Origin: a virus | Taxonomy: Duplodnaviria; Heunggongvirae; Uroviricota; Caudoviricetes | IMG/VR virus record: IMGVR_UViG_3300035208_001992 | Direction: 5' to 3' (one strand) | DNA length: 64,000 nucleotides | In this document: in pieces, positions 1 to 55,045 of the stretch | How the letters are laid out: each line of letters begins with the position of its first letter | Numbering within the stretch: position 1 is the stretch's first letter | Position numbers and translations under genes: made by a program | The notes under the pieces: generated by a model | The model's database searches: none | What the model was told of the DNA's origin: nothing | The model's input: only the letters and a program-made list of their open reading frames with translations

Positions 1-1133
1 AAGAATACTTGGTCCATAGCAATCAATGCTTCTACGTTTTTGATGATATCATTCTCTGTCGGTCGACGACCTTCTATTTCGCTGTATGGCCCAATCACGA
101 ACGAATGATTGTCATCGTCATGGCATCTTGACGCTATTGCGTAATCTACGACGCGATCGTGCTCGTCAAGCAAAGGCCACAACTCAACAGTGATATGGAT
201 GCCAAATGATTTGTATCCGTACGCTAGTACGCTAAAGTGACTAAACGTTGAGTGCGGCTTGATTGACTGCGCTTTGAAGTCGACACCAGCAATCTTGATC
301 GTCTTACGCAATAAATGCGCAACCTCTTTGAGGCCAGGCACAGCAACTTCGGTCGCTACGCGAGCAGTGACTGCGTTTGCTATGCTACAAGCCTTGTCGT
401 ACTCCTTTTTGGATTCACTGATAGCATGGACTATTAGACTAACGTCGCTAGGACTGAGATTGCCAAGATTGAGATCGAGCGATCCGTTAAGGTCAGAGTC
501 CAAATGTATCGTTCTTGACGGCCTGTAACCAGGATACCCAATTGTGAATGTCCGCCTGCGATTATCTAGCTTTATGAACATGTTAACAATGCGCTTAATC
601 GGATTCTTGTTTTGACGTGGAAACGTCATAATGAATTTGACACCACATGTAAGTCCTGATCCTATCACTCGGTCAAACTTGCATGAGCTACCAAAAGTGT
701 CTTTGACGCTCTCTTTAATGACACTCACAATTCGGTTGCGGTTTCTGTTGTCGGTTGATTTGACTTCGACAAGCAGCTCATCGAACGCTTTTGACGACAT
801 CTCAAGCATGCTATATCTGTTCATGCTAGCCATGCTTTGTTTGAAGCGCTTGTGCGCGTACGCGCCATCGTCAAGCAAGATCGAAAAGACTATGACGCAG
901 CGATCGCTTAGCGCTTCTGAATTGAATGTAGCATAGATAGTTGCACGGAATTTTACGTCACCATCGACTACATGTTGCGCGTACGTGACTTCGACGTGAC
1001 GATCAACAGTCTGTTTGACACGCACTAACTTCACGTCTTTGCCGTTGATCTTGGTATTTATGAAGTCAACGCGCTTTGCCGACGCGAACGGATATGCTTC
1101 TTTTTCTGCGTTGATTCGTGCAATTGCGTGCAT
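1..1133 (-). CDS. Leader-motif cargo protein, two modules; partial, runs off the left edge; not in the supplied ORF track
   Basis: ATG at 1133 overlaps the upstream TGA (TGATG). Frame checked open to the window edge. Starts MHAIARINAE; internal TARVATE at 348-365. Confidence 0.85.
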   Translation of the reverse strand, partial: MHAIARINAEKEAYPFASAKRVDFINTKINGKDVKLVRVKQTVDRHVEVTYAQHVVDGDVKFRATIYATFNSEALSDRCVIVFSILLDDGAYAHKRFKQSMASMNRYSMLEMSSKAFDELLVEVKSTDNRNRNRIVSVIKESVKDTFGSSCKFDRVIGSGLTCGVKFIMTFPRQNKNPIKRIVNMFIKLDNRRRTFTIGYPGYRPSRTIHLDSDLNGSLDLNLGNLSPSDVSLIVHAISESKKEYDKACSIANAVTARVATEVAVPGLKEVAHLLRKTIKIAGVDFKAQSIKPHSTFSHFSVLAYGYKSFGIHITVELWPLLDEHDRVVDYAIASRCHDDDNHSFVIGPYSEIEGRRPTENDIIKNVEALIAMDQVF

Positions 1134-1507
1134 CAGAAACCTGCCTCAACGCGCTGAATAAGCTTAGCCATTGCAGAAACAATGTCGAGTTCAGTTGCGC
1201 GCTTACTCAACTGCATCGATTCACTTTTGCGAGGCATGCCAAAGTGCAAAGTTATCGAAAACTGACCGGAGCGATCACTGGCGCTTATGATGAAGCGCCC
1301 GAATCGATTGAAGTACGTTGATGTTAGCGCAATCGCTTGATTCGTCTCTTTGGTCGTCTTATTGACGCCTGTGATCATCTCTTTTGTGAAAGACATACGA
1401 GTGTCAATTTTGATCATGCTTGGCAAACGCTCGTACAGCTCTTCGATGCTTGCGTGATCTTCATGTGATACGCGGCTTGTGATCTGGTAGAAGGCTAGAG
1501 TGCTCAT
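1133..1507 (-). CDS. Leader-motif cargo protein, 124 aa
   Basis: N-terminus MSTLAFYQITSRVSHE; paralog of 1504-1875; ATGA-coupled. Confidence 0.85.
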   Translation of the reverse strand: MSTLAFYQITSRVSHEDHASIEELYERLPSMIKIDTRMSFTKEMITGVNKTTKETNQAIALTSTYFNRFGRFIISASDRSGQFSITLHFGMPRKSESMQLSKRATELDIVSAMAKLIQRVEAGF

Positions 1508-1876
1508 GACTCTGCTTCTATACGTTGCTTCACGAGTTTGATCATCGCTTCGTTGACGTCAGTGACTTTAGCTGATACATTAGTTATCCGCTGTTCCAGT
1601 TGTCTCTGAAATCCGCGCATTTTAGTGTCCCAAAAGAGATATCTAAGAACAAGCGATCCATTTGACTCGGCATATAGAATGAATTCAGTTTTGCGTCCAA
1701 CACAAAATTTGATGATCTTTCCGAGGTGCTTATCATCTTCTAACGAAAGATCATAGAGCATTGACCAACCTTTTATGATGAAAGGATCTGGCAATTCTTC
1801 GTACAGACCAACGATGCCTTTGCGTCGTTCACTAGCAACGCGACTCGTGATCTGGTAGAAGGCTAGAGTGCTCATG
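1479..1876. repeat. 30-bp identical direct repeat at 1479-1508 and 1847-1876
   Basis: gtgatctggtagaaggctagagtgctcatg at both positions; it covers the start of two adjacent genes. Confidence 0.95.
1504..1875 (-). CDS. Leader-motif cargo protein, 123 aa
   Basis: N-terminus MSTLAFYQITSRVASE; ATGA-coupled. Confidence 0.85.
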   Translation of the reverse strand: MSTLAFYQITSRVASERRKGIVGLYEELPDPFIIKGWSMLYDLSLEDDKHLGKIIKFCVGRKTEFILYAESNGSLVLRYLFWDTKMRGFQRQLEQRITNVSAKVTDVNEAMIKLVKQRIEAES

Positions 1877-2951
1877 CGTTAGCATCCATGAATTTGTCAA
1901 CAGCCTTCATTGCAGTTTTGACCGTATTCTCGAACTCGCGCTTGAATAGATCGATGATCTGCATGCGATCATGCGTTGTCGCATCGAATCGAGTGTCACC
2001 GCTTGCTATTGCTTCAGTAAGGCCTGGTTGAGCTATTACCCAAAGCATGCGTAGAGATTGCTGTGCTGTGTTGAATGATCTACCGCGTACACAAATGATG
2101 ATGCCGCGATATTCGAGCTCGATCGCAGGCTCGTTGGCGCCTAATGCTCCGTGTACTTGAAGTCCAAGCCGCTTAGCTGTTTTGGTTGCGCTCAGTATTG
2201 CGTCAGTCATGAAGTGATGCTCAATGCGCAGCAGTTGTGGGAACAGCTTTTCAAAGACATAGCCAACATGCCACGTGATCGTTTCACGTGTCTTTGACTT
2301 GTTCTTGAATGCCACTGACTTGTCTACACTAACGCCATTGTCGCGACGAAGTAAACGTGACACAGCATGTATCATGCGGTATCTGCCAGTGCCAGCCTCA
2401 AACAGATTGAAGAAGCAGATCATTGGGACGTCATGAAACGTGACACGCGCGCTATAGCTCATTATCTGTTTGCTCTTGAATGCTGTAAGCGGAAATTCAA
2501 TCCTTTGGCCGAACGCGCTGATAATAAGCTTCTTTGGCAAATCACTGTAGTCGAACTCTGACGGGTTCTCAGTACCTACGCGCGCAACGACTGATTTCTT
2601 GTTGACTGCTTCGATCACGTTTTCAATCATCTGCATGGACAGTTTTTCGCCTTTAGGCAGATGACTTTTGATCTGCTTTATGAGGCTGTCTCGCAGTGCT
2701 TGCGGAATACTGACGCTCTGTATGACGCGTTGTTGATCTGTATCTATCTCGATTTGTACATGCTTGTTGAGCTCGACTAGGTACTGGTAAACTACAGTGT
2801 TCTTATTGCGCAATGTCCACATGGACAGAGTGTTGTTTACGCGTATCTCTTCGCTTTCTTGCTTACCATTTGGTATTTGCGGTGGCACCGGGACTAGTTC
2901 ATTTTGTTCGCCAGCAACGCGCGCTTTGATGATTTGCAGTGCTGTTAGCAT
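1872..2951 (-). CDS. Leader-motif cargo protein, at least two modules, 359 aa
   Basis: MLTALQIIKARVAGE leader; internal VVARVGTE. Confidence 0.85.
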   Translation of the reverse strand: MLTALQIIKARVAGEQNELVPVPPQIPNGKQESEEIRVNNTLSMWTLRNKNTVVYQYLVELNKHVQIEIDTDQQRVIQSVSIPQALRDSLIKQIKSHLPKGEKLSMQMIENVIEAVNKKSVVARVGTENPSEFDYSDLPKKLIISAFGQRIEFPLTAFKSKQIMSYSARVTFHDVPMICFFNLFEAGTGRYRMIHAVSRLLRRDNGVSVDKSVAFKNKSKTRETITWHVGYVFEKLFPQLLRIEHHFMTDAILSATKTAKRLGLQVHGALGANEPAIELEYRGIIICVRGRSFNTAQQSLRMLWVIAQPGLTEAIASGDTRFDATTHDRMQIIDLFKREFENTVKTAMKAVDKFMDANA

Positions 2952-3634
2952 CAGTGATTCTCCGCAATCTCACGCTTAGCAGCGCTTAGAAGTTCGGTGC
3001 ATGCATTCATGATACGAGATCTGGACGTTGGCATTGGCAGCTTAGCTTCACGCTCAGCGCGTTCAACACGGTTGGTCGGTTTCATGATGCCGACTACAGC
3101 AGTTATTGTAAGTGTGCCTGCTGTTTGCCTGAATTCAATTCTTGAGAACTTTGGTTCGCGTTCATCAGATGTGAACTTATGGACGCGATTACCCATAGTG
3201 CCGGCTGACATTGAGTATTCGAAATTCGAGCCGACGCATGAGAAGCCATCGTACAAATCCATGATTATGCTGTTGACTTGCAGTTGCTCGCCAGCAACGC
3301 GCGCAGTCACAATGGTCACGTCATCTTCAGACGCGTCTTCAAGAGCACTGATGAGCTCGGCCTTGCTAACTGGATACGTGAGCTGGCCATGTTCGTACTG
3401 GCCATGGTTCTCACTTCTGAATTCAAAGAAACCTGACGGGTAGAACGTCAAGTAATTTATGTGCGCTGGACCGTGCTCTTCATGATATGAAACGAGGCCA
3501 GTAGGATCCGGACGCTCGAAACGTACCAAATGCGTACGGCCTATGCGAATGTGCATTGGCAAATCAGCTAACTTGCCGTAGACAGCGCGTTCACGATCGA
3601 CGCGCGCGATGATTGCATTGAGCGCTTGCGTCAT
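2951..3634 (-). CDS. Leader-motif cargo protein, two modules, 227 aa
   Basis: MTQALNAIIARVDRE leader; internal IVTARVAGE. Confidence 0.85.
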   Translation of the reverse strand: MTQALNAIIARVDRERAVYGKLADLPMHIRIGRTHLVRFERPDPTGLVSYHEEHGPAHINYLTFYPSGFFEFRSENHGQYEHGQLTYPVSKAELISALEDASEDDVTIVTARVAGEQLQVNSIIMDLYDGFSCVGSNFEYSMSAGTMGNRVHKFTSDEREPKFSRIEFRQTAGTLTITAVVGIMKPTNRVERAEREAKLPMPTSRSRIMNACTELLSAAKREIAENH

Positions 3635-6048
3635 AACCGGCGTCTCCGTTGTGCGATCTCTCGTGATTCTCGATGATTCCTTGTAGCTTCGTCCAACGCT
3701 GCCTTGAACTCACCAAGTGTTGATGGCATATCAAGCTTGCCGTGATGCGTCCAACCGTACAACGCGCGACTTGGCCTTTTGCGCGTCAACACGTTGATGT
3801 TGTAATCATGATCGATTGAGATCACAAAGCCAAGTTCACTGTCTTCTAGCTCGCCGCTGTATTGGGCAAGTATTTTAGCGTGACCATATGATACGCGCTC
3901 TATTGCGACGAGGTCAAGATTGAGGCGCTCAGGAAATTCGGCTTCACTTTTGATGATGTTGTCTTCCGACGCAACTCGAGATTCTACAGGCTTGTTAGCG
4001 AGCTTGCTTGCAGCATTCTTTGCGCGAGCATCAGCAACTTGCTTGTCGATCAACGGCGCAACACGCCGAAGCAGCTCATTCAAATTGAATGGATTCAACA
4101 TGCGGAAAGTCTTCATGTTGACATACGGAGGACCATGCACGTCAACGACAACGACGATTCCTTTAGTTGCGTCATGCGCGTCAAACAACTTGATGACTAC
4201 ATACGCGTCAACGTCTGTGATCTCACTGACTAAGTACGTTGCGTTCACAATGTCGCTGAATCTTTGCATGTTGTTCGAGAACTTGAGCACGTGATGTCCA
4301 GCTTTGAGTTCATCGACGTGCTCAAGATCATTTAACGTGGTGAGCTCTTGCTTTTCGCCAGCAACACGAGCTATAGTCACTTTCTTTGATTTGCGTTCTA
4401 CTTCTGCGAATAGTGCACGCAACGTTTTGAACAACATATGATAGCTCAGATTTGGTTTATTGATTACATAATCTACGCGTATGCCGTCACTAACAACGCC
4501 AACAACAAATTTGTCTTTTGAGAAGTCACGCGATACTTCTATACGCCGAAGCGTGTTGAAGTTGAAATTATTGACTACATCGCCATGTATGAAACTCACT
4601 TGCACAACGTGATCAAATGAGCGTGAACTACGACGAACATAGCGATCGTTGTCAAAGACCAAAACGTTACCAATGTCGTCTGGTCCTTCAATTGCGCCTT
4701 TGTCTTCACCAGCAACGCGGGCTTCAACGCGGGCTTCAACGTTCTTTTGCTTTAGCGCTTTTTCAAGAAGCTCTACAACGGTGCGCTTGAAGACAACAAT
4801 ATTGATTGGGTTAGTAATTACTGTCGAGCCAAATTCGCTGACTGCTCCTCCTCTATGATCATCATGAAACTGCTGAATGCACACATCAAGATCATTGATT
4901 TTCTCGCCTGGAAGACGCGGTTTTTGCGTTGGCGATACTTTGACAAACAGCGCTTTGCTAGATACGTTTTTGACGTCAAAAGCAATGCTAAGAACGTGGC
5001 CAAAAGGCGAAATGATGCGATCCATAGCTAGCGCGTATTTGCCGCACTGAATCTTGTCGATTTTTGACAGATCTTCAAAAGACATCTCGTTGTGCTCGCC
5101 AGCAACGCGAGCTTCGGTGAAGCCACCGTGCTGAGCTTTGTTCATCGCAGTCAAGCACATATTCATGAGCTGAGATTGCTTAAGAACATCTGTATTGAGC
5201 GTCACACGAGAAGTACTTGAGCCAAACCTAGCGTTCACGTCAACCCTGTTCAACTTTTCGTTTTCATTATTGTCTTTGAATAATGCGATGTAGAACGATT
5301 GAATCTGACGCGTTCCAGCACGCTCGAAGCTGACTGAAGTCATGTTAGACGCGATTAACTTACCAGTCTGTTTGTATTGTATACCGTTAACGGTGATGTC
5401 ACGCATGTTGACGAATTCTGCGAACGTTATCATCTGTATTTGCTCAGCGCCGACGCGAGCTTGCGCCACTTCTTGCAAGATCGGTTCGTGCAAGATCGGT
5501 TCGTGCGGTTCTGTCAGCATCGCGCTCTCAATTGAGACACCGCGTTTGGTCTTGATCTGCAAGATCTCGGTAGGTAGCGCTGTGATGCGCTCACGAGCAA
5601 TGCCGTTGTGCGCTTGAATATGCAGTGGCGTAGCGCCGTTCAGATTACGGATGAGCAGACGTCGAATTGGCAGCAGCCCAAGCAAATCGACTTTGTTCTG
5701 CGCGAGATAGTGCAATGCGCAATTGCCTTTGTCGTTCTGCAGTGACAATGTCAAGATGTCCTGCTTCAGCAACAGATCGAGCTCACGTGAGTATGGCTTC
5801 ACACAACGCGCAACAACGTGAACAACCAAGTTCACGCCTGCGTCATCAAGCTTCTGTCGAAGCTTCTCAGCGTCAGACACGAGCGTCAACAAGAAGTTTT
5901 CGTTCCAGTCTTCGACAAGCTGCTTCACTACGTCATTGGCTGGCTTTGTCTCTTTTGGATCAAGCCGCACAAGGAAGTTCACAGCAGTAGGACCGAAACC
6001 GATTTCGACTTGTTCTTCAGCGTCTCTGATGAAGTTTGAGTCAGTCAT
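3631..6048 (-). CDS. Putative polyprotein: N-terminal ankyrin-like repeats plus five motif-delimited modules
   Basis: Ankyrin-like GNCALHYLAQN and GATPLHIQAHNG; five internal ARVxxE/SRVASE copies. ATG at 6048 preferred over the TTG at 6060. Confidence 0.85.
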   Translation of the reverse strand: MTDSNFIRDAEEQVEIGFGPTAVNFLVRLDPKETKPANDVVKQLVEDWNENFLLTLVSDAEKLRQKLDDAGVNLVVHVVARCVKPYSRELDLLLKQDILTLSLQNDKGNCALHYLAQNKVDLLGLLPIRRLLIRNLNGATPLHIQAHNGIARERITALPTEILQIKTKRGVSIESAMLTEPHEPILHEPILQEVAQARVGAEQIQMITFAEFVNMRDITVNGIQYKQTGKLIASNMTSVSFERAGTRQIQSFYIALFKDNNENEKLNRVDVNARFGSSTSRVTLNTDVLKQSQLMNMCLTAMNKAQHGGFTEARVAGEHNEMSFEDLSKIDKIQCGKYALAMDRIISPFGHVLSIAFDVKNVSSKALFVKVSPTQKPRLPGEKINDLDVCIQQFHDDHRGGAVSEFGSTVITNPINIVVFKRTVVELLEKALKQKNVEARVEARVAGEDKGAIEGPDDIGNVLVFDNDRYVRRSSRSFDHVVQVSFIHGDVVNNFNFNTLRRIEVSRDFSKDKFVVGVVSDGIRVDYVINKPNLSYHMLFKTLRALFAEVERKSKKVTIARVAGEKQELTTLNDLEHVDELKAGHHVLKFSNNMQRFSDIVNATYLVSEITDVDAYVVIKLFDAHDATKGIVVVVDVHGPPYVNMKTFRMLNPFNLNELLRRVAPLIDKQVADARAKNAASKLANKPVESRVASEDNIIKSEAEFPERLNLDLVAIERVSYGHAKILAQYSGELEDSELGFVISIDHDYNINVLTRKRPSRALYGWTHHGKLDMPSTLGEFKAALDEATRNHRESREIAQRRRRL
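4714..4737. repeat. 12-bp tandem duplication encoding EARV EARV
   Basis: aacgcgggcttc twice. Confidence 0.95.
5474..5503. repeat. 15-bp tandem duplication encoding EPILH EPILQ
   Basis: tgcaagatcggttcg twice. Confidence 0.95.
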
Positions 6049-6110
6049 GGTCGAAAGCAAGAAAGGGCCGCAGTCGTAGACGGCAGCCCGAGTGAGTGAT
6101 TGTTGCTCAT
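6045..6110 (-). CDS. Possible 21-aa peptide MSNNHSLGLPSTTAALSCFRP
   Basis: ATG lies 1 nt after the upstream TAG; its TGA overlaps the next ATG (ATGA); it spans a terminator-like hairpin. Confidence 0.35.
   Translation of the reverse strand: MSNNHSLGLPSTTAALSCFRP
6059..6089 (-). terminator. Rho-independent terminator-like hairpin
   Basis: GGGCUGCCGUC-UAC-GACUGCGGCCC followed by UUUCUU. Confidence 0.6.
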
Positions 6111-6111
6111 G

Positions 6112-6291
6112 CTAAGAGTTCTCTTCTCTGTCTGGTACATAGAGCCGAAGTTGCGGTCTACTACGCGTTGGAGGAGGTGGAACAAGCTCGTTGAGCTGTT
6201 GTTCAAACAGTTCACGAACTAACGTATTCTCGCGCTCGGCTTCGAGCCGACGCAATCGATGCATTGGGCGTTCAGCTCTTTCTCGCATCAT
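6112..6291 (-). CDS. Hypothetical protein, 59 aa (below the track cutoff)
   Basis: MMRERAERPMHRLRRLEAERENTLVRELFEQQLNELVPPPPTRSRPQLRLYVPDREENS; ATGA overlap with the upstream gene; fills the gap. Confidence 0.6.
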   Translation of the reverse strand: MMRERAERPMHRLRRLEAERENTLVRELFEQQLNELVPPPPTRSRPQLRLYVPDREENS

Positions 6292-6983
6292 CCACGACCC
6301 TCGTGAGCAATCCGTTGTTTGATCCGCTGGCCCATGCGATCCATCACATCATTGAACTTGCTAGCGCTCATAGGAAACTTCAATGACTCTCCGTGCTCAA
6401 GCACAGCAACAAGAACTAAATCAATTGCAGCGCGAACAGAACCATCGTCAGTGAAGTTGATCACGACGCCTTTGTCTGGTCCGTAGCCTCGCTCACGATA
6501 GGCTCTCATTGATCTGGTTGACATCACTTCATCGTACATAGTTCCAGCGGCGTTGATCACATTTGGCAAGCTGTCGAAAGTGATCTTGAGATCTTCATGA
6601 TTGACTCGAGCCTCAACGTAGTTCTCTAAATGCACGTCAACACGCATGAGCACTTTAAGCAGCACGTCATTGAAAACTTTACGCTTGACTGGAAAACGAA
6701 ATTGACGTCTGCCTGTATCGTTTACACGCATATTGTCAATGTCTACTAACACGTCACCGTCTCTCCAGATGTCAACTTCAATCTCAGTGACGTGCCTGCC
6801 GTGACGCTCAACGTCTTCTTTGTACTCAGTGCACATTCCGTACAGCCTTTGCAATTGCAACTTGTGCTTTCCAAGCTCAATCACAGACGGTAGACTATCG
6901 TACTCGACCATATCGTCAAGTTCGCCAGCAACGCGTGCTTGCACGATGTCAAGCGCTGGCGAGATCCAAGTAGTGTCTACCAT
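6288..6983 (-). CDS. Leader-motif cargo protein, two modules, 231 aa
   Basis: SPALDIVQARVAGE leader; internal EARVNHE; both modules begin (Y/F)DSLP. Confidence 0.85.
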   Translation of the reverse strand: MVDTTWISPALDIVQARVAGELDDMVEYDSLPSVIELGKHKLQLQRLYGMCTEYKEDVERHGRHVTEIEVDIWRDGDVLVDIDNMRVNDTGRRQFRFPVKRKVFNDVLLKVLMRVDVHLENYVEARVNHEDLKITFDSLPNVINAAGTMYDEVMSTRSMRAYRERGYGPDKGVVINFTDDGSVRAAIDLVLVAVLEHGESLKFPMSASKFNDVMDRMGQRIKQRIAHEGRG

Positions 6984-8857
6984 ACTTTGCCTGCAATTCC
7001 AAATGCACGCTTGAAGTTTTCATTGCTTGAGTCAATCTTTGAACGAGCCATATTGTGTAAAGCTGTGCGTTGATGCAGACTCATGTTACGGTCACCATTC
7101 GTGCCGCTCACTTCGATTTCAATGATCTTGCCATTTGACGTCGAAATCTCGATCCATGTACCAGGCATGATTCTTGCTGTGTAGCTCGATCGATGCTCTC
7201 CATGGTCTTCATAGCGCCATATGATGTCATTGGCATCCTTGAACGTTGAGTGCGGTACAAGGTCAAACACTTTCTCGTTAGCGATGCGCGCAGTCACCGC
7301 TTTTGCGCCAATGCTCGATAGCAATGCTTGCAACGTTTCGAATGTTGCTGGCTTGTGATCGAATGGCTCAAGCTCTTCTCGACTGATTCCCTTTGAGCCG
7401 ACAATGAAGTAAATCAAGTCGAAGTTAGCTACGTCGAAACGTAGGATTCGTCCATCGCCTAGATTTGCTGTGTAGTGAGTCGAGCGTGAGCACTCATCCA
7501 CTTCGTGCTTGAATTGCACGCCGCTTAAAGTGAAGTCGGCCATTGGGACGCGTTCAACAGCTGTACTCGCAGTTGCTTGCGTATCGTTGCGCTTCATCCG
7601 CTTTGCATACTCAGCTAGCTTGAGCAACAGCGCTTCGCCCAAGACGACACGATCATTTGCAACGAGCTTTTTGAGCGCATCGCGATCCAAATGTTTGCCA
7701 ATCATTCCGGAAAGCTCAATGTCGACGATGCGTTGTTTCTCATCAGTCAAGACTAGCAGGAATGTGCCAAGCTCAACTCTGGTATGGTACGCAATGTGAT
7801 GGCGCTTGACATACTTGCCATTGCTATTTTTGATGTCAGCTTTTTGTGTCCACACAGCGAAATTGAATTTGCCAAGTTGAAAACTGACGTCATCATTGGT
7901 GTTAGCTGGTATTGGCAGTGGCTCATTATGCTCGCTAGAGACACGCGCAACAGCTTGATTCGGCACAGCTATTTCGATGATCTTGCGCAAGTTCTCTTGC
8001 GTTGCAGCTGGTCGGTCTTTGCAGAACTGCAGTAATGCCTCGCGAGAGTCGCCAAGTATCGTTGTTGAGCTGTTCTCTAGCCAAGCGGCATGAATGCGAT
8101 CATTGACGACGTCAAGCATGCAGTAGCGATTTGGACGCACACGTGCTCGATACCAGCGCTCATCGCGTTGATCGCTGCCTTCGAATGACCAGCTAAAACC
8201 ACCAAATTTGAATTCGTGTTGTGGCAACGCGTTGTTCAATTCAGCAGCCACACGCGCTGTCGCTGAATTGTGTGAAGGCACGAGTATGTCTAAGAATGCC
8301 TTCAAGTTCTTCAAGTTAGCGTCAGGCTCTGTTTCAAGTAGACTCGTCACTTTTTGCTTGCGAGCAGCAGGCTCTTCTCGAAGTTCTCCGTGAATCGTGA
8401 CGAACGCATCAGTGATCTTGTCATGATCGATCATTACGGAGAAATAGACGTTTGATCGCAGCGTTGTGTCGTAAAACGACAGGCCAGTAGCCATGTCAGT
8501 GCCTTCGGCTGGCTCCCATGATCGACCAAAGGCTTTGAAACGACGCTTTGGCAGCGGATCATCGTCTGCATCGAACGCAACGCGGCCAGCGACAAGACTG
8601 CTTGGCTGACCGCTAGTAGCGCGACGCTTGACCAACATCTTGCAGTCACTTAGCGTCTCAGCAAGTGCATCTGCATTGTCCTCTTCATCGCGATCGTATC
8701 GAGCCTTGGCACGCGCAAGCAACAATTGCTGTTGGAGCCAGCGCTCACAGCATAGTGAGAAGTCTGCAAGTGTGATCTTGTACTTTTGCCAGTCTTTGAC
8801 TACATCAATATAGCCACGACGTTCAAGATCTAACAGCAATTGCGTTGGAGTTTTCAT
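6977..8857 (-). CDS. Putative polyprotein of five diverged tandem modules, 626 aa
   Basis: Internal GRVAFD, ARVAAE, ARVSSE and ARIANE, each followed by a similar LP..F.(F/L)G module. Confidence 0.85.
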   Translation of the reverse strand: MKTPTQLLLDLERRGYIDVVKDWQKYKITLADFSLCCERWLQQQLLLARAKARYDRDEEDNADALAETLSDCKMLVKRRATSGQPSSLVAGRVAFDADDDPLPKRRFKAFGRSWEPAEGTDMATGLSFYDTTLRSNVYFSVMIDHDKITDAFVTIHGELREEPAARKQKVTSLLETEPDANLKNLKAFLDILVPSHNSATARVAAELNNALPQHEFKFGGFSWSFEGSDQRDERWYRARVRPNRYCMLDVVNDRIHAAWLENSSTTILGDSREALLQFCKDRPAATQENLRKIIEIAVPNQAVARVSSEHNEPLPIPANTNDDVSFQLGKFNFAVWTQKADIKNSNGKYVKRHHIAYHTRVELGTFLLVLTDEKQRIVDIELSGMIGKHLDRDALKKLVANDRVVLGEALLLKLAEYAKRMKRNDTQATASTAVERVPMADFTLSGVQFKHEVDECSRSTHYTANLGDGRILRFDVANFDLIYFIVGSKGISREELEPFDHKPATFETLQALLSSIGAKAVTARIANEKVFDLVPHSTFKDANDIIWRYEDHGEHRSSYTARIMPGTWIEISTSNGKIIEIEVSGTNGDRNMSLHQRTALHNMARSKIDSSNENFKRAFGIAGKVW

Positions 8858-9237
8858 TGGTCGTCTTGCCAGTCGCTCATGCGATCTTTGAACATCTTCT
8901 CAAGCGTTTCCATCGTCTGCTTAAACGTTCTTTGGCATTTGAGTGTCGACGTTTGGCTTTCACTATCTTCATCTTCGAGTTTGATTAAGCCAAGCTCAAT
9001 ATGGATGAAATCATTTTTCGCTTTATTGAAGGTCAAGTACAAATCTGGACGATGCTTGTCAGAGTGGTACTCAACAACGTAGTCTTCACGACGCTCTATC
9101 CAAAACAAGTGCCCATTGATACGCAGTTCTCTTGGATAGCTTTCGAAATCTTCAAGCGTTTTGTCATCGTCACGCTCGCTAGACGTACGCGCGACAACGT
9201 TGAAGCCTAGTTGACGTAGAGTTGCAGTGATGCTCAT
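8854..9237 (-). CDS. Leader-motif cargo protein, 127 aa
   Basis: MSITATLRQLGFNVVARTSSE; TAATG overlap at 9237 supports this start. Confidence 0.85.
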   Translation of the reverse strand: MSITATLRQLGFNVVARTSSERDDDKTLEDFESYPRELRINGHLFWIERREDYVVEYHSDKHRPDLYLTFNKAKNDFIHIELGLIKLEDEDSESQTSTLKCQRTFKQTMETLEKMFKDRMSDWQDDQ

Positions 9238-10034
9238 TATAAACCTCGTGGCCAAGTTTTGCGTACATCAATCCAGTCTTGCTTAATTATACGTGTTTTC
9301 AGCAAGTCACTAACTTTGTCAAGCGCCTCTTTGAAAGTCGTTTTGGCTGGCAGTGCTCGCAGTTCATTGAGTCTGTCTTCGTCATCATCGTAACGTTTTC
9401 CAACATCTATTTGGACGCTACCGCTAGGATGCTGCGTGAAGATGATATAGACTGTATGATCACTATACTTGCCGTAGTACGTTGTACCTTGATGATCGCG
9501 CTCTTCGCATTCGAACTTGATCTTGTTGAGCATGAACTTTTGAGGCATGCGTTCAAACGAGTCGATCGTTGGATTCGCGTCGTACTCAGGCGAGACACGT
9601 GCAACCACGCGAGTTGGTTTTGCTGTGATCACAAGTGGTGGTTGTGTGCTGCGTTTAAGCTCTGCGTTCAACCGCTTGAGCAAATCATCCAAAGGGATTG
9701 GAAACACGCTCTCGTTTGATATGAGCCGGCGCATTAAACGCGTAGGATCTTTTGTACCTGCTTCACGCGCGCGTACAGTGACTGTCTGCGTGCCGCCGCT
9801 ATCATTGTTTTGTATGAATGGTATTTTGTACGTGACATCATCGATATCACATGAATACTCGACGAGTGAAAACGAATGATAGCCTGTATCGACGCTTCCA
9901 CGCTTAGCAACATGGCCGTCCAGATAGAGTATTGCTGGCAGTTGACCGATGCGCTCGATGTTCTTTTGCTCGTTGGCAGCGCGAGCAGCCACGCTAAAAC
10001 CAAGAAGCGCCAGACGTTGTACAACGTTAGTCAT
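9237..10034 (-). CDS. Leader-motif cargo protein, two modules, 265 aa
   Basis: MTNVVQRLALLGFSVAARAANE; internal VVARVSPE; ATGA overlap at 10034. Confidence 0.85.
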   Translation of the reverse strand: MTNVVQRLALLGFSVAARAANEQKNIERIGQLPAILYLDGHVAKRGSVDTGYHSFSLVEYSCDIDDVTYKIPFIQNNDSGGTQTVTVRAREAGTKDPTRLMRRLISNESVFPIPLDDLLKRLNAELKRSTQPPLVITAKPTRVVARVSPEYDANPTIDSFERMPQKFMLNKIKFECEERDHQGTTYYGKYSDHTVYIIFTQHPSGSVQIDVGKRYDDDEDRLNELRALPAKTTFKEALDKVSDLLKTRIIKQDWIDVRKTWPRGL

Positions 10035-10570
10035 TTGTGCATTGTCTTTCGTAAGTGCTTCAACAAAGCTTCGTCTGCTTTGTGCACGTTGTTCTCGACC
10101 CAATCAGGTAGATCATTGATGCTGTTGAGCTTCGTCTGCGCAATGACCAAATCTTCAATCGAAAACGAAACCGGAATCTCAGTCATGTCTTGAGCCATCG
10201 AGTGCTGGACGATGTTGCTTTGCGCGTCTTCCCAATCAGCGCCTTTGATATGACCTATGTTGAGCTGTAGTGGCAGTCCCCAAGCATACAGATCAGTCTG
10301 GTACATTTTGGCGTCTGCTTCATCTTCGATGAGCGACTTTGCCTCAGTAGAGAGCGCCTCAATTTGCATGTAGTTGGCATCGCACTGCCGATCCCAATTG
10401 CAATCAAGCGTGAAGTGACGTGCCTTCTTCAGAGCGCGATTGACATCATCTGAGAACGCGTCATGATACAACGGCACAATGCCAGGTGAAACAAACTTCT
10501 GTCTGTTCTCGCTAGCAACGCGTCCTGTGACGACGAATCCTAATTTAGCTAACTTAGCCGATACTTGCAT
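10031..10570 (-). CDS. Leader-motif cargo protein, 179 aa
   Basis: MQVSAKLAKLGFVVTGRVASE. Confidence 0.85.
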   Translation of the reverse strand: MQVSAKLAKLGFVVTGRVASENRQKFVSPGIVPLYHDAFSDDVNRALKKARHFTLDCNWDRQCDANYMQIEALSTEAKSLIEDEADAKMYQTDLYAWGLPLQLNIGHIKGADWEDAQSNIVQHSMAQDMTEIPVSFSIEDLVIAQTKLNSINDLPDWVENNVHKADEALLKHLRKTMHK

Positions 10571-10598
10571 TTGTCTGCCCTCTAAGATTTGATCGCGA

Positions 10599-11600
10599 TC
10601 AGCGTTCTACGTGCTTCCAAGGCTTCGGCTGTATGATCTTGCCGCCATTGTCAATCACGATCTTCTTGATCGCGTCAAGTGCACTTGTACGCGATTGCGG
10701 ATCAGGAAATACCATGAAAGCGTCTTCATCATAGTCGAATGTGGTACTAAGTTCTCGAACAGTAGCTGAGTTAGGTTTGTTCGATGTATTCGATGTGCGC
10801 TGATTTGCGTTGAACTTGATTGCGCGTTCGGGGTGTATTGGCTTCGATACTGTCGAATCAATGAACTCAACAAGTGCAGCACTGCTATGGATTGCGTCGA
10901 TCATTTCTTTGAAAGACTTGAAGCGCTTTTTCTTCAAGAAGGCGCCGATCGGTTGCGTGATGACGTCAAGATCTTTGCCTGGCTTGAGCTCATGTATGCC
11001 AGCAAGATCAAGTGAGACAATCGTGCCAGTAGGCGAATTGATAATTAGCGTTATTAAGCTTTGCTCATTCTCGTCTTCTTCGAATGATATAGCAAACGTA
11101 TCACCTGCGTCGTTGCTGTGATTGTCCAAGCGACGCATCATGAAACGCCCAAGCATGAACTTCTTTGGCACAATGATCAGCGACTGATACTTTTCTTTGA
11201 AAGCGTCATGCGCGCTGATCAGTCGCTGCTTCAGTTCGCTAACAGGAACGTTTGCAGACGTATTTGACGGCGCAAGCTTGAATGTGCGCTTCATCAAAAT
11301 TTGGTTATTGGACGTAAGCTGTACATAAATCTCGTAGCTTGTGACTTTGTAGCTCTTGATGTCCACAGACACAACGAAGGTCATCGAGCCACGTCGTGCG
11401 TAATAGCTAAAATATGAGTCAACGCGGTTTACGTCACAATCTTCTAACTTGAACTTCAAACCAGCGACTTCGAACTTGTGGTCGCTCATTTTGAAGTCAT
11501 CATCTCCCACGCTGTCAATGCTGAATGGCAGCAAGCTGATACTGCTGGCCTCTCCAGCAAAACGTGCTTGTGCAAGTTCAAATGCTTGTGTCATGATCAC
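10599..11600 (-). CDS. Leader-motif cargo protein, 333 aa; paralog of 14952-15923
   Basis: QAFELAQARFAGE; shared C-terminal DNGG(K/R)I...K.WK module. Confidence 0.85.
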   Translation of the reverse strand: MIMTQAFELAQARFAGEASSISLLPFSIDSVGDDDFKMSDHKFEVAGLKFKLEDCDVNRVDSYFSYYARRGSMTFVVSVDIKSYKVTSYEIYVQLTSNNQILMKRTFKLAPSNTSANVPVSELKQRLISAHDAFKEKYQSLIIVPKKFMLGRFMMRRLDNHSNDAGDTFAISFEEDENEQSLITLIINSPTGTIVSLDLAGIHELKPGKDLDVITQPIGAFLKKKRFKSFKEMIDAIHSSAALVEFIDSTVSKPIHPERAIKFNANQRTSNTSNKPNSATVRELSTTFDYDEDAFMVFPDPQSRTSALDAIKKIVIDNGGKIIQPKPWKHVER

Positions 11601-12370
11601 TTACTCCCGCGAGTTGACTTGCCATACAGCTTCTTCAGATTGTCGATGTGACGCGCAAAAAGCTTCAATGACGCAACGCTGACTTCGATCGTTTCATCAC
11701 CAATCTTGACTGTGCCTTTGACTCTGGCATCTTCGGTTGGAACAAGTACCAGCTTGTTAGCTATAATGGCCTCATCAAGCTTTTGCTGCAGGTTGCTGAC
11801 CAGCAATCTACCTTTGAGCGTTGCTGAAACTCGTTTGGTTGTGTCAGCGCGCCGCGCTTGTAGAATTGCGCTGTTAACGTTATTTGCTTCGCCATAGACG
11901 TCAAGCTTGAACGATCCATTGTATGAAAATCGCCAGTCGCCTCGAAGATTTACGCCGGTTACGACCTTGATTGGTATCACTACGTCGCCGAATCTTAGTG
12001 CATAGCGTTTTGCAATCACGTTAGCGCTTGTTGCTGTCAATTTGTTGATTTTGGCAATGTCTTCACGTAAAGCGTCGACAAGATCTTTGCTGTTGTCAAT
12101 ATCGCGACTTGTGTCATTTCTGTTGATGTACGTGCCTACACTTACTGTGTCTCCATCTTGATCAGATATTGTGATGCCATTCACGCGACCGAGCGCTGTT
12201 TTGTAGTCGGCTCTAAGCACCTTTTGATTTCGCCAAAGTACTTTGAAGTCAAGCCCTTCTATTTTGATTATTACAGCGCCTGATTTCTTAGGCATCTTCG
12301 AAAAGATGCGCTTCAACTGTTGGAGATAGTCAATGCCTTCGCCAGCGAAACGAGCAATTGCAGTGTTCAT
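11597..12370 (-). CDS. Leader-motif cargo protein, 257 aa
   Basis: MNTAIARFAGE. Confidence 0.85.
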   Translation of the reverse strand: MNTAIARFAGEGIDYLQQLKRIFSKMPKKSGAVIIKIEGLDFKVLWRNQKVLRADYKTALGRVNGITISDQDGDTVSVGTYINRNDTSRDIDNSKDLVDALREDIAKINKLTATSANVIAKRYALRFGDVVIPIKVVTGVNLRGDWRFSYNGSFKLDVYGEANNVNSAILQARRADTTKRVSATLKGRLLVSNLQQKLDEAIIANKLVLVPTEDARVKGTVKIGDETIEVSVASLKLFARHIDNLKKLYGKSTRGSK

Positions 12371-12371
12371 C

Positions 12372-13247
12372 TTAGTTTCCCTTCAAGTACTGCAACAAGT
12401 GCTTCTTGAATGCAACAGCATCTTTCACTTCAAACGTTTGCTTGACGCTGCCAACGTCAACAACTACTGTTGCGCCCATGCCTTGAGCTGTTGATTGGAA
12501 GATGTTCTTTGCATTACAAAGTTCACGTAATTTTGCTGGCAATTGTCCAGACTCTGCAAAGCTCGCTGGAATCTTGAAATCAAAGGTCCGATTCGATGTA
12601 GCACCGCGCGGCTTTGCTGTAACGCTTATTGCGATGTTAGGCTTACCAACGACATAGTGCAACTGCACTGCAATTGACGACGTTGACCAATTCCGAGTAG
12701 AAACAACTATGTCGCCGTCAGAATCTAACTCAATGACGGGATTGAGCTTCACGCCCATAAGCGTAATAGGTTGCTTTGCCCAATCAGGCACTTTAGTTGA
12801 CATCTCGTCGACTTTTGCGATTGCTGCGTTTATGCGCAATGCAAACTGCTCAGCCGCGTTATTAGCTGTTGCCTTTACAGGAGTGCCGATAGGATCGTCA
12901 CTAAGCGTCACAACGTATTTGTTGTCACTAATAATGTCATCATTGTCTATAGATATGGAAAAGCCTTTGTAAGTAGCGCCGTGGTTGATGTACTCGAACT
13001 CACGCGTGTAGAAGCCGTCTTCATTGTCGCTCATCGCATTGTTGATTACGCGCTCAAACCGTTTGCGTTCGGCGTCTAATGATCTCGTTCCAAATTTGAC
13101 GAACTTAAGATTTTTATAGACAAAAGCCGTCGGGAACTGATGATACCGCCTGAACGTTGCAAGCGCCTCAGTCAGCGATGGGTCTTTCGATTCGAGATTG
13201 ATCCGCGCTTGGACGATGTCAAGTGCTGGACTCACTGTTAGCATCAT
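12372..13247 (-). CDS. Leader-motif cargo protein, 291 aa
   Basis: SPALDIVQARINLE; the SPALDIVQAR segment is identical to that of 6288-6983. Confidence 0.85.
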   Translation of the reverse strand: MMLTVSPALDIVQARINLESKDPSLTEALATFRRYHQFPTAFVYKNLKFVKFGTRSLDAERKRFERVINNAMSDNEDGFYTREFEYINHGATYKGFSISIDNDDIISDNKYVVTLSDDPIGTPVKATANNAAEQFALRINAAIAKVDEMSTKVPDWAKQPITLMGVKLNPVIELDSDGDIVVSTRNWSTSSIAVQLHYVVGKPNIAISVTAKPRGATSNRTFDFKIPASFAESGQLPAKLRELCNAKNIFQSTAQGMGATVVVDVGSVKQTFEVKDAVAFKKHLLQYLKGN

Positions 13248-14062
13248 TTGCCTGCTTTGTGCTGCTCCAGCACGACTTTGATCTGTTCAAGAGCTGTACG
13301 GTAATTCGATACGTCATAGCGGAAGATGCGTTCGCCTTTGTTCAAGCGCTTGTCACGCAAGATGACGTCGATTTCAGCAGTCTTATCACCAGGGAAACCA
13401 TGATCCTTCAAGCACTTGGATATTGCGTTGACGATCTTCTCAACAGGCCATGTGTCCAGATCAAATTTGATCGGATACCTAAGTCTGCTGCGAACGAGCA
13501 TAGTGATGTCTTTGTCTTCAACATCGAAGAAGATCTCGATTGGGTAGTCTTTGAGCTTCCAACCGATCCAAGGCAAGTGTCCTACTGTATCATCGAAGTC
13601 GCCATTGCTGATTTCTGCATCAAGTCCGTTGAATGACTTGACTTTCGCCAGCTCTCTAAACTTCGGCATTGCGTTAGTGATCTTCGAATCAACCTCGTCG
13701 ACGATGCGACGAACTTCTACGTACTTTGGTGGAATGATGTCGTCAAGACTGTCGCCACTGCTTCTGCTGTCATCATATCCCCATCTAGCCTTGAGATTAC
13801 GACTTATCTGCATTACGCGTGTATGACCGGCAATGTTGAAAGACATGCTAACGTCGTTTTGGTTGACGCGGACGTTTGCGTCTAGTCCGCATTTAGCTAA
13901 TTTGCCACTACCACCATATGATGCACTTGACCAGCTTCTATCACGTACGTCATCGACCTGATTCAGCGTGAGCTCAATGCCACTCGCAGTGAATGACTCG
14001 AGCGCACGATCTGGATCTTCTGCGGCGATACGTGCTGACACGATCGAAAGCGCGGTATTCAT
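13244..14062 (-). CDS. Leader-motif cargo protein, 272 aa
   Basis: MNTALSIVSARIAAE. Confidence 0.85.
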   Translation of the reverse strand: MNTALSIVSARIAAEDPDRALESFTASGIELTLNQVDDVRDRSWSSASYGGSGKLAKCGLDANVRVNQNDVSMSFNIAGHTRVMQISRNLKARWGYDDSRSSGDSLDDIIPPKYVEVRRIVDEVDSKITNAMPKFRELAKVKSFNGLDAEISNGDFDDTVGHLPWIGWKLKDYPIEIFFDVEDKDITMLVRSRLRYPIKFDLDTWPVEKIVNAISKCLKDHGFPGDKTAEIDVILRDKRLNKGERIFRYDVSNYRTALEQIKVVLEQHKAGK

Positions 14063-14955
14063 TTCTTTGCTTTCTTCATTGGCGCAGCTGTGAAGCGATG
14101 CTTTTCAAGCAATGCCGTAAGTTCTTTATTGAATGCTTTCTTGTCTGCGATTGGCACGCGTTGTGATTGTCCATCGACGTCGATCAGCGCTGTTGGAATG
14201 CTCATGCCACTAACTTTAGATTTAGCAAGTTCTTTGTCAATCAGCTTCCTTGCACCATCGAAATTGACAACTTTAGAGAACGATAAGTTCTCAATCGTTT
14301 CGTTGATGCTGACAACGTTGTTGTCAGTTGTATGGAGTTTGTCTCCTTCAATTGTGATCGAAAACACTGGCTCTGATGGCTTTTCGCCGGCCGCACGATT
14401 CGCTGACAGTTCGAAATAAATGTTGAAGTGCTTTGCATCAACGTATTCTGCAAAGTACGATGACGTGTCTCGCAGTTTGTGCGAAACAGCTTTGAGCTTT
14501 ATGTCGCCAATATCGAACTCTGGCAGTAATGTACCAGCAAAGTTGTCCATGCTTTGCGCGTATTGCATTATCTGCTCAACAGCTTTGTTAGCCTTGCGCA
14601 AGTCTATGCCTTCATCGTAATTGTCTTCTGGAATAGGTATACCAGCGCTTATGTCAATGCATGCTAGCTCAAACTCGCTTGACCTATTCATCGACTTCCG
14701 TGTGTCACCGTTGCTCAAGCTGCTGCGAATCTCAACAGATATTTGACCATCATTGAGGTCACATGCAACCATTACACCATTTCGCAACGTGTGTACGAAT
14801 GAGTCCACCCTTGGAGCCCAACGTCGAAATACGAAGCCACCAACGCGTATTGACTTGATAGCTTTGAGATCGTCTTGGTCAAGATTGATGAGACCTGAGA
14901 CTGCGTTGTCTTCGCCTGCAACGCGAGCCTGAATCACTTGCAGTGCGGTCTTCAT
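14059..14955 (-). CDS. Leader-motif cargo protein, 298 aa
   Basis: MKTALQVIQARVAGE; ATGA overlap at 14955. Confidence 0.85.
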   Translation of the reverse strand: MKTALQVIQARVAGEDNAVSGLINLDQDDLKAIKSIRVGGFVFRRWAPRVDSFVHTLRNGVMVACDLNDGQISVEIRSSLSNGDTRKSMNRSSEFELACIDISAGIPIPEDNYDEGIDLRKANKAVEQIMQYAQSMDNFAGTLLPEFDIGDIKLKAVSHKLRDTSSYFAEYVDAKHFNIYFELSANRAAGEKPSEPVFSITIEGDKLHTTDNNVVSINETIENLSFSKVVNFDGARKLIDKELAKSKVSGMSIPTALIDVDGQSQRVPIADKKAFNKELTALLEKHRFTAAPMKKAKK

Positions 14956-15923
14956 GGCGTTGGCTTCCAATCTTTCTCGCTCATAATACGACCGCCGTTG
15001 TCTTTGATCAATTTGCGTAGCGTATCGAGCACAGTGTTGCGCGTTTCAGCATCTTTGAAGATCACGTGCATGAAGCCGTCATCATCGATGTATTCACTTG
15101 GACTGTTAAGCGCATCAGCAGGCAGTGGAGAAGTGTGCTGCACGTTCAGCTGCATAATGCGTTCATCAATGCCACGCTTTGGTTTGAGCTTGGCTAACTT
15201 TGACATAATTGACTTGTTGCTAGTTATAGCCTTCAGCATCTCATCGAAGTTCGCTGCCGGCTTTTCAAGCAAGTCAACAATAGTATCGTTGTCGCATTCA
15301 GTGAGATCGAATGGGTCTTCACCGTCAGCCATGTCACCGTTCAAGAAGAACCAGCAGACGTTGTTCTTGTATTTGTCGATCCCGATTTCGACCATTGGCT
15401 TGTCTTCTGAATCTTTGGTGTCAGATACGAACTCATGAGTGTCGTCACGCTTCTTCTTAATCATGTTGAACGGGCCAAGATTGAATGACGCAGGAGTCTT
15501 GAATGAATCCTTAAACATAGCCCTAGCTGCTGGCTTCAGCATATTGAATGCGTCTTCAATCGCTGACATGCTGATTGAGTCGCCAGTTGCTTTGAATTTC
15601 TTCGTATTGTTGTTTTCTCGACGACGCATGTTAGACGGGTGAGCGTCGCACTCGTAGCTAGCGAATTTACCAGCTCTATAATTCAACGTGAGCGCATATG
15701 TAATGCCACTGACTTTAGCGTAGAAGCTGATCCACTCCAACTTGCCCTTTGACGTGTAGTCACAGCTAGTTTTTGTGAATTTCAACTTCCCAACGTTTGC
15801 CAATTCAAGAATCGCGCGTTCGTCCGCGTCATCTAGCTCGGCAAGGTGCTTGATTTGCGCTGCGTCGATTGATTTAGTTTCGCCGGCAACGCGGGCCTTC
15901 ACGATTGAAAGTGCGGTCTTCAT
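14952..15923 (-). CDS. Leader-motif cargo protein, 323 aa
   Basis: MKTALSIVKARVAGE. Confidence 0.85.
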   Translation of the reverse strand: MKTALSIVKARVAGETKSIDAAQIKHLAELDDADERAILELANVGKLKFTKTSCDYTSKGKLEWISFYAKVSGITYALTLNYRAGKFASYECDAHPSNMRRRENNNTKKFKATGDSISMSAIEDAFNMLKPAARAMFKDSFKTPASFNLGPFNMIKKKRDDTHEFVSDTKDSEDKPMVEIGIDKYKNNVCWFFLNGDMADGEDPFDLTECDNDTIVDLLEKPAANFDEMLKAITSNKSIMSKLAKLKPKRGIDERIMQLNVQHTSPLPADALNSPSEYIDDDGFMHVIFKDAETRNTVLDTLRKLIKDNGGRIMSEKDWKPTP

Positions 15924-17645: not shown

Positions 17646-17677
17646 TTTTGAGACTTTCTGCTGTGCGTGTCCATATA

Positions 17678-18070
17678 CTAAGAGTTCCTTGAATGCTGCT
17701 GTATCAGCCGGGCTAACTTGTGATCTTCTTTGGCAGCGACAAGCAGTTCTTTTAGCCCAACGCGTTGATTTGCTGTATGTTGCGATGCGCTTGAGTAGAT
17801 GCCTTCCCATGTATGTGGATCAGTCCGGACGTCAAATGAGTAATGAGCATGATCGCGGTAGAAAAAGATTCGCATGATCTGTTTATGCTCGTAAACAACG
17901 GCACCTCCACCGAAGAGCGAGTCAACGACATACATATCACAGAAGTAATCCCAGACAATTCCACCAACCGTGATCGTCTTTGGCTTGTTAGCCCATGACT
18001 GCTCTTCAGGTTCAGCAGCTACGCGTGCAACGCATAAGCCAAGCTGCGCTAAACGCTTTTGCATGTTCAT
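17678..18070 (-). CDS. Leader-motif cargo protein, 130 aa
   Basis: MNMQKRLAQLGLCVARVAAE. Confidence 0.85.
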   Translation of the reverse strand: MNMQKRLAQLGLCVARVAAEPEEQSWANKPKTITVGGIVWDYFCDMYVVDSLFGGGAVVYEHKQIMRIFFYRDHAHYSFDVRTDPHTWEGIYSSASQHTANQRVGLKELLVAAKEDHKLARLIQQHSRNS

Positions 18071-18966: not shown

Positions 18967-18990
18967 GATTCACTCCAGATTGCGTTAGAA

Positions 18991-19026
18991 TAACACAAAG
19001 AGGCGCCACCAATCGGCAGCGCCTCT
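18991..19026 (-). terminator. Rho-independent terminator
   Basis: AGAGGCGC / GCGCCUCU stem (18999-19006 with 19019-19026) followed by UUGUGUUAUU; intergenic. Confidence 0.75.
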
Positions 19027-38424: not shown

Positions 38425-38425
38425 G

Positions 38426-53581: not shown

Positions 53582-53583
53582 GT

Positions 53584-55019: not shown

Positions 55020-55045
55020 TGCTTTACATCATAGTGCTTTGGCAA

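Follow-up and report, generated by a model that had tools for sequence, protein, structure and literature searches.

A candidate cargo polyprotein of motif-joined, shuffled modules behind an ankyrin-repeat domain in an uncultured jumbo phage

Cleavage of phage head proteins after a Glu residue has been described in T4, where gp21 cuts at [LI]xE sites, in phiKZ and 201phi2-1, where the sites are S/A/G-x-E, and in SPN3US, where they are AxE (PMC5694885, PMC10052503). The T4 internal proteins IPI, IPII, IPIII and Alt, otherwise unrelated and fast-evolving, have a cleavable capsid-targeting leader in common; they are packed into the head for injection, and IPI*, at the least, acts against a restriction system of the host (PMC3012670, PMC5694885). 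In phiKZ, 201phi2-1 and SPN3US, many head proteins are cut by gp175 or gp245, internal proteins form families of paralogues, and gp53 presents several copies of the motif (PMC5694885, PMC10052503). The capsid protein of PaBG is likewise processed, and several virion proteins of this phage each gave more than one band on gels, a pattern that the authors attributed to proteolysis at multiple sites (PMC7412058). Finally, the polyvalent proteins of Iyer, Burroughs, Anand, de Souza and Aravind (2017) are multi-domain proteins that are delivered with the invading DNA and were likened to viral polyproteins; they contain catalogued enzymatic and LPD domains, and their release was proposed to occur through an embedded peptidase, MPTase (PMC5512222). 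Here, we analyzed P0001, a gene on the minus strand (positions 3631-6060) of a stretch of 64,000 nucleotides of the IMG/VR virus record IMGVR_UViG_3300035208_001992, hereafter the window, which corresponds to bases 24034-88033 of a 278,473-bp viral contig. P0001 presents five copies of a Glu-ended motif at the borders of units that are shuffled among its relatives. The reading that we favor, as a reasonable probability, is that its product is a cargo polyprotein cut after the Glu of each joint by the head-maturation protease in the prohead. Positions are those of the window unless marked as genome positions.

The open reading frame (ORF) of P0001 comprises 809 codons from TTG 6060, with its stop codon at 3631-3633. 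The alternative start ATG 6048, which yields a protein of 805 amino acids (aa) and is the start of the database record P0007, is the more likely of the two. Residues are numbered here on the 809-codon reading. An earlier note on this DNA had reported five regularly spaced motif copies in this gene, and translation together with a six-frame motif scan placed all five in one reading frame and at the same coordinates as the note had. All parts lie on the minus strand. The N-terminal domain (residues 5-200; 5461-6048), a divergent ankyrin-repeat domain, is followed by junction motif 1, ARVGAE (residues 201-206; 5443-5460), with a predicted cut after Glu206; the same junction is kept in the homologues P0008, P0010, P0039 and P0011. 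Module 1 (residues 207-316; 5113-5442), delimited by motifs and defined as a family by BLAST and profile searches, ends at junction motif 2, ARVAGE (residues 317-322; 5095-5112), where a whole-protein BLAST match to P0051 stops. Module 2 (residues 323-442; 4735-5094), whose sole relative, P0010 residues 432-540, matches weakly, is separated by junction motif 3, the doubled ARVEARVAGE (residues 443-452; 4705-4734), from module 3 (residues 453-563; 4372-4704), which is related to P0010 residues 541-654. Junction motif 4, ARVAGE (residues 564-569; 4354-4371), precedes module 4 (residues 570-693; 3982-4353), related to P0008 residues 439-559, and junction motif 5, SRVASE (residues 694-699; 3964-3981), precedes module 5 (residues 700-809; 3634-3963), related to P0008 residues 672-791. 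The segments that follow each motif Glu measure 116, 130, 117, 130 and 110 aa in gene order, in agreement with the earlier note. The doubled motif of junction 3 appears to result from duplication of the E-A-R-V codons in tandem (12 nt). Searches of Pfam and PHROGs with P0001-P0006 gave, at E <=0.01, a single weak match, to a PHROG of unknown function, and no protease-like unit was detected in P0001 by these searches.

We defined the strict motif as [ASG]R[VI]xxE. Its five occurrences in P0001 compare with a mean of 0.10 in residue shuffles (at most 2 in 5000 shuffles). Likewise, it was found 42 times in the 76 minus-strand genes located between 14 and 81 kb of the genome, as opposed to 2.35 times in shuffles (at most 7 in 500 shuffles). 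The reversed motif was found only three times in this gene region, and the strict motif only four times in the remaining 65,543 residues of the contig; the 18-fold enrichment over shuffles is confined to one strand and one region. Across 40 sites, P5 is R in every case and P4 is V in 32 and I in eight, P6 is A in 32, and P3 is a small residue in 35 (24 A, six G and five S). P1 is E at all 40 sites by construction of the search pattern, whereas P8, which lies outside this pattern, is V or I at 31 of them. The residues downstream of the Glu are variable and polar. These frequencies define an extended joint motif, [VI]-x-[AS]-R-[VI]-[AGS]-x-E. Of the 28 motif-bearing genes, 20 have their first motif at most 35 residues from the N-terminus, and the bodies of the corresponding proteins are unrelated by BLAST.

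The codons of the motif vary synonymously about as much as elsewhere in the genes, with GCG, GCT and GCA used for Ala and GAA (24) and GAG (18) used for Glu. This indicates that conservation acts on the peptide and does not reflect a DNA repeat. Chance, a compositional artifact or an in-frame DNA repeat are virtually ruled out as explanations of the motif by its enrichment, its conservation in related phages and its codon variation. As a separate observation, the motif Arg is never encoded by AGA or AGG (0 of 42 sites), codons that make up ~15% of the Arg codons in the same genes. Duplication or recombination, rather than independent origin, may account for the spread of the sites.

The search for relatives of P0001 with phmmer against 1.84 billion representative proteins yielded only 21 proteins at E <=0.001, nearly all of which share just the N-terminal domain. 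At the level of these sequence searches, the family is rare. In all of the homologues P0008 (791 aa), P0009 (540 aa), P0010 (879 aa), P0011, P0039 and P0041, the ankyrin domain comes first and has the motif at its end. The modules that come after this domain differ in number, kind and order from one homologue to another, and each is bounded by the motif or by a variant such as ARxxLE in P0041. Indeed, the distant ankyrin-headed members P0041, P0040, P0011 and P0042 present joints with Leu at P2 (e.g., ARIALE, ARTSLE, ARVSLE and GRAALE), and the joints of P0009 include AQVAGE and GRAAGE; variation of the motif between lineages may track the protease. The five modules of P0001 fall into five distinct small families, between which all-against-all BLAST of the motif-delimited pieces and iterated profile searches detected no similarity. 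We also considered that the gene contains five copies of a single module, an idea that these same searches rejected at the sequence level.

Each of these families recurs in other contexts, with the exception of the weakly matched module 2. Members of the module 1 family come first, after a 16-aa leader, in the two-module proteins P0050 and P0051 (the latter identical to the product of positions 2773-3522 of the related contig L004), and another occupies the fourth position in P0008. In P0009 the first module, and in P0010 the third, corresponds to module 3; P0008 contains module 4 as its third unit and module 5 as its fifth. The genes next to P0001 take part in the same exchange. The upstream neighbor P0006 (6288-6983, minus strand) is built as leader, motif, module A, motif and module B; in contig L003, the orthologue P0008 contains this whole unit as an in-frame fusion after its ankyrin domain (38% identity over 250 aa), with the P0006 leader aligned to the terminal part of that domain. 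The single-module gene P0004 (1504-1875, minus strand) consists of a 16-aa leader, SRVASE and one module, which is the internal second unit of the two-module P0051. Finally, the second module of P0050 corresponds to a stand-alone gene of L004 (3519-3932) behind an 18-aa leader: their 81% identity starts exactly at the motif, and the sequences upstream of the motif are unrelated.

We repeated the whole-protein BLAST without cutting the proteins at the motifs beforehand. Internal starts of high-scoring segment pairs (HSPs) fell within 10 aa of a motif in 22 of 48 cases, relative to 5.7 expected, and internal ends did so in 46 of 85 cases, relative to 11.6 expected. In 23 HSPs, representing about a dozen separate cases, a unit located internally in one protein stands at the N-terminus of the other. 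In addition, the related contigs L003 and L004 use the motif equally densely in a syntenic gene cluster. Judged from these alignments, the motif marks the borders of independently evolving units that are equally workable when fused or separate, as expected if the units are separated after translation. Among the lines of evidence gathered here, these comparative data are the strongest in favor of separate units.

The first ~200 aa are not a leader: profile searches and structure matches identify them as a divergent ankyrin-repeat domain, which is the first unit in every homologue (38-76% identity). A profile built from 13 homologues gave 89 hits at E <=1 against the PDB sequences, mostly ankyrin-repeat proteins (best E 1.2e-6); protein-atlas features for this domain point to ankyrin as well, and the matches to Pfam Ank and Ank_2 fell below the gathering threshold. 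In the AlphaFold2 model, which was computed on the 805-aa protein with a 12-row alignment, the ankyrin region (residues 71-182) reached a predicted local distance difference test score (pLDDT) of 70-88. When the whole P0007 model was used for a structure search, the top 50 matches were all ankyrin repeats (Z up to 10.3); the only matches were ankyrin ones covering residues 8-184 (mostly about 45-183), and no module was matched. Similarly, the protein-atlas feature search with residues 203-805 gave no usable match. The ankyrin domain may act as a carrier or targeting unit, or it may be an effector.

The model as a whole has a mean pLDDT of 51 and a predicted template modeling score (pTM) of 0.27, the latter indicating no fixed arrangement between domains. 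Usable confidence was reached only in the ankyrin domain, in module 3 (pLDDT 75-89) and in part of module 4 (57-77). Every module is predicted to consist of a beta-sheet followed by a C-terminal helix, with module 3 the best modeled, which hints at an architecture common to the modules. Each motif comes after the long helix that closes the preceding module, and all five are located in segments of pLDDT <50 (model residues 183-211, 266-424, 434-450, 555-567 and 682-782). For instance, the low-confidence coil in which junction motif 4 is modeled connects the terminal helix of module 3 with the beginning of module 4. The earlier note had anticipated that AlphaFold would return independent domains with the motifs in linkers. 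The model is in line with this in that all five motifs fall in low-confidence inter-domain segments, and it offers a real test only at the ankyrin domain and modules 3-4.

The contig that contains the window has an estimated completeness of 74%. A PHROGs search of ten large ORFs of the window identified only the portal protein (26329-28509, minus strand; phrog_16240, E 1e-114) and the large terminase subunit (30056-32131; phrog_17415, E 1e-107). The nearest matches of the portal, at 30-36% identity, are from the jumbo phages Vibrio GR7B, Ralstonia RSL1, Pseudomonas PaBG (34%) and the Erwinia pEa_SNUABM group. No match to P0001 was found among 50,697 phage records at the DNA or the protein level (megablast and tblastn), and a scan of a viral contig collection with P0001 returned no relative. 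Because the nearest portals are those of jumbo myophages and none of the 50,697 phage records matched, the source is best regarded, from these comparisons, as an uncultured jumbo phage with a distant relationship to the RSL1/PaBG assemblage. Its portal, protease and capsid protein are RSL1/PaBG-like.

The contig contains one head-maturation protease gene, outside the window (genome 184603-185400; phrog_18299, E 9e-44), on the opposite strand and ~155 kb from P0001. Its family of 24 members presents an invariant His (in HFEH), an invariant Ser (in GWSMG) and a second invariant His (in YHLCTGS), and homologues in PaBG (35% identity), Y3 and JA11 carry the annotation prohead core protein protease. 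The gene is adjoined by genes for an acidic scaffold-like protein and for the major capsid protein P0056 (phrog_2522, E 5e-45). We did not find a second phrog_18299 gene in the contig, nor any match to the ClpP, S49, S78, S78_2 and S77 families (PF03420, PF04586, PF14550, PF00574 and PF01343). Searches of the PDB sequences with the protease, by phmmer and with a profile, gave no match. With respect to gene order, the protease, the scaffold-like protein (540 aa) and the capsid protein (374 aa) lie together on the plus strand (genome 184603-189104), next to a DNA primase gene and ~130 kb from the portal-terminase block; head genes are located in two distant clusters, as in PaBG. Identical copies of the protease (P0013) and of the capsid protein (P0056) are encoded on a 305,891-bp contig, and a longer, probably more complete assembly therefore exists.

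The favored mechanism can be described as follows. The product of P0001 would be a precursor of capsid-internal proteins that is built into the prohead, where the head-maturation protease would cut C-terminal to each motif Glu. Six separate proteins, the ankyrin domain and the five modules, would be released and would stay in the head, probably to be ejected alongside the DNA; by analogy with the T4 internal proteins, the functions of the modules would possibly lie in host takeover or anti-defense. In about 20 neighboring genes, the motif that follows an N-terminal leader of 10-35 aa would be the equivalent of the T4 capsid-targeting sequence (CTS), and the genes of the cluster would be single-, double- and multi-unit versions of the same system. 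Because everything would be cut apart at the motif, fusion, splitting and reordering at this point would leave the products unchanged, and this would result in the shuffling seen in related phages. Two parallels argue for this scheme: the small residue at P3 and the Glu at P1 resemble the cleavage rule published for phiKZ and SPN3US, and the leader-position motifs in 20 of 28 genes resemble the CTS leaders of T4 (PMC3012670). The proposal of the earlier note that one gene yields several mature proteins is supported as far as independent units at protease-type sites are concerned, given the shuffling and the breaks of homology at the motif; we infer the cleavage and the enzyme responsible, as well as the location in the virion. 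More tentatively, and with less confidence than for the cleavage itself, we suggest that any module placed behind [VI]x[AS]RV[AGS]xE may be loaded into the capsid and freed, that the ankyrin domain may be the carrier that addresses the capsid, and that fusion, fission and reordering at the motif may be the main way in which this lineage diversifies its injected arsenal for anti-defense or host takeover.

Several observations weigh against the cargo polyprotein. Its main weakness lies in the capsid, because the shell and the cargo share one cleavage rule in T4, phiKZ and SPN3US: the ARVxxE motif was sought in the capsid protein, the portal, the scaffold-like protein and the protease and was found in none of them. 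Residues 1-120 of the capsid protein P0056 do not contain a Glu that is invariant across 18 homologues. A minimal x-x-E site may still be present. The protease itself is hard to classify. PF03420 was not found, an hhalign comparison of the protease profile with T4 gp21 reached only E 0.2 (although it paired the invariant His with the gp21 segment of residues 77-138), the protease was poorly modeled by AlphaFold2 (pLDDT 52), and Foldseek returned nothing from the PDB at E <=0.001. The protease is not placeable in the T4 gp21 family, and its specificity for Glu is therefore an assumption. Furthermore, modules 1, 2 and 5 were modeled at pLDDT <50, so that the position of the motifs in linkers is testable only around the ankyrin domain and modules 3-4. 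Some motif-bearing genes stand among apparent tail genes (37954-38463 and 52834-56093), and no such motif array was found in the cultured relative Vibrio phage GR7B, in a search of 50 kb surrounding the portal gene.

Other explanations would account for the same motifs. P0001 might be a long propeptide cut at several sites, the upstream pieces being scaffold that is degraded and expelled and at most the last module surviving. Precedents for this exist in the long propeptide of SPN3US gp53 (PMC10052503) and in T4 gp22, gp67 and gp68 (PMC5694885): the cuts identified in SPN3US all remove N-terminal propeptides, long ones through several cuts (PMC10052503), and the T4 core proteins are cut to short fragments that exit the head (PMC5694885). 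However, the same module family can be internal, C-terminal or a stand-alone gene behind a short leader in different proteins, and the pieces of 110-130 aa, where modeled, are predicted to be folded alpha/beta domains, unlike coiled-coil or acidic scaffold segments. We regard the propeptide as unlikely. A slightly smaller probability is given to ARVxxE as an uncleaved linker or docking motif, i.e., an interaction or packaging signal toward the scaffold, the portal or DNA, in a protein that stays full length either within or outside of the virion. Cleavage is something that we infer, the capsid protein, portal and scaffold do not carry the motif, and its conservation at P8, P6, P5 and P4 exceeds that of published T4-, phiKZ- and SPN3US-type sites, all of which would agree with docking. 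Yet the motif falls between residues 10 and 35 in 20 small proteins and recurs at each multi-module joint, ends in Glu with a small P3 and is followed by variable polar sequence, a better fit to a processing site, and free fusion and fission at the motif are expected if the products separate anyway.

It is also conceivable, and quite improbable in our view, that the motif is cut by another enzyme or at another time: by a second phage protease, by a host protease or only after ejection. The sole recognizable protease gene is far from P0001 (about 130-155 kb) and its substrate rule is assumed, a second protease could be missing from a contig that is 74% complete, and polyvalent proteins were proposed to be processed after delivery (PMC5512222). 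Against this stand the negative searches of the contig for the ClpP, S49, S78, S78_2 and S77 families and for a second phrog_18299 gene, as well as the cut after Glu with a small P3, which is a known signature of giant-phage prohead proteases. Relative to each of these explanations, we retain the cargo polyprotein as the more probable reading of P0001.

The motif-bearing gene cluster lies downstream of the portal gene on the same strand. It occupies positions 1-19000 of the minus strand within the window, reaches ~10 kb further upstream of the window start and comprises ~30 genes with a leader motif, internal motifs or both. The single-module neighbors of similar size and the multi-motif neighbors listed in the earlier note were found again, the former at 1133-1507, 1504-1875 and 17678-18070 and the latter at 1872-2951, 2951-3634, 6288-6983, 9237-10103 and 18067-18966, along with a gene that runs off the start of the window. 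A second multi-unit protein is encoded by a neighbor at 6977-8857 (minus strand; 626 aa), which presents three strict motifs; unlike those of P0001, some of its units appear distantly related to each other, as both match units of the orthologue at 7838-9754 of L003 (residues 1-297 and 528-638). The cluster genes at 10599-11600 and 14952-15923 (minus strand) are near-full-length paralogues (24% identity over 292 aa, E 4e-14), indicating that the cluster also grew by whole-gene duplication. Between the gene at 6288-6983 and the start of P0001 lies an Arg-rich ORF of ~59 codons (6113-6290, minus strand) that overlaps the upstream stop codon and falls short of the 60-aa threshold of the ORF list; the equivalent place in contig L003 is only a 246-bp gap.

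We also observed a second type of leader, of 17-50 aa, which ends in K-x-G-[LFM]-x-V-x-[AG]-R-V-x-x-E. It is present in six minus-strand genes of the window (10031-10570, 37954-38463, 52834-53247, 54396-55019, 55046-55591 and 55563-56093), which encode small proteins among large genes apparently belonging to the tail region. Two of them, 54396-55019 and 55563-56093, are paralogues with 28% identity.

If the cuts are real, a single phage gene would send six different proteins into the capsid at fixed 1:1 proportions, and dozens of small internal proteins would arise from the more than 40 sites of the cluster. What is known from T4, one leader for one internal protein, would then be widened to a polyprotein strategy. 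A simple sequence rule would become available to find packaged and ejected proteins, which are candidate anti-defense effectors, in uncultured jumbo phages, and recombination at a cleavable joint would explain how the arsenal diversifies. Like the CTS of T4, the motif would also be usable as a tag by which foreign proteins are loaded into such capsids.

How does this locus compare with the described systems? The earlier note had presented the strategy as little documented in tailed phages. This needs to be qualified, as multi-site cutting in the prohead is known in T4, phiKZ, SPN3US and PaBG (PMC5694885, PMC10052503, PMC7412058) and a comparison with polyproteins has been made for polyvalent proteins (PMC5512222); the statement does apply to arrays of unrelated modules joined by prohead-protease-type sites, of which we found no description in the literature searched. 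Polyvalent proteins resemble P0001 in that many unrelated domains are contained in one phage protein and are shuffled between relatives. In contrast to them, neither an embedded peptidase nor a catalogued domain was detected in P0001 with Pfam and PHROGs, and each joint presents instead a site of the type cut by a protease in trans; one homologue of P0001 has a weak match to LPD26 (E 0.0035). In polyproteins of the eukaryotic-virus type, an internal protease frees itself and its neighbors, whereas here the protease is not encoded within P0001. PaBG (Baikalvirus) shares homologous portal and protease genes with this phage, but no cleavage motif or module array was described there, and the processed PaBG proteins include the capsid protein itself.

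The closest parallels are with phiKZ, SPN3US and T4. The sites of phiKZ and SPN3US likewise combine a small residue at P3 with Glu at P1. However, their extra sites lie in propeptides that are removed, so that only the C-terminal part is mature, and their major capsid and portal proteins carry the motif, whereas both are devoid of the strict motif here. No homology to phiKZ or SPN3US proteins was found in PHROGs or by tblastn, and this phage is not phiKZ-like. As in the T4 internal proteins, a short N-terminal leader ending in a site with Glu at P1 is present on otherwise unrelated small proteins. Unlike T4, where each gene contains one unit, genes of this cluster contain up to five or six units with a site at each joint; the motif is ARV[AGS]xE rather than [LI]xE, and there is no sequence homology to the T4 proteins. 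By analogy, the P0001 system probably extends the internal-protein system of T4 and the processing systems of phiKZ and SPN3US.

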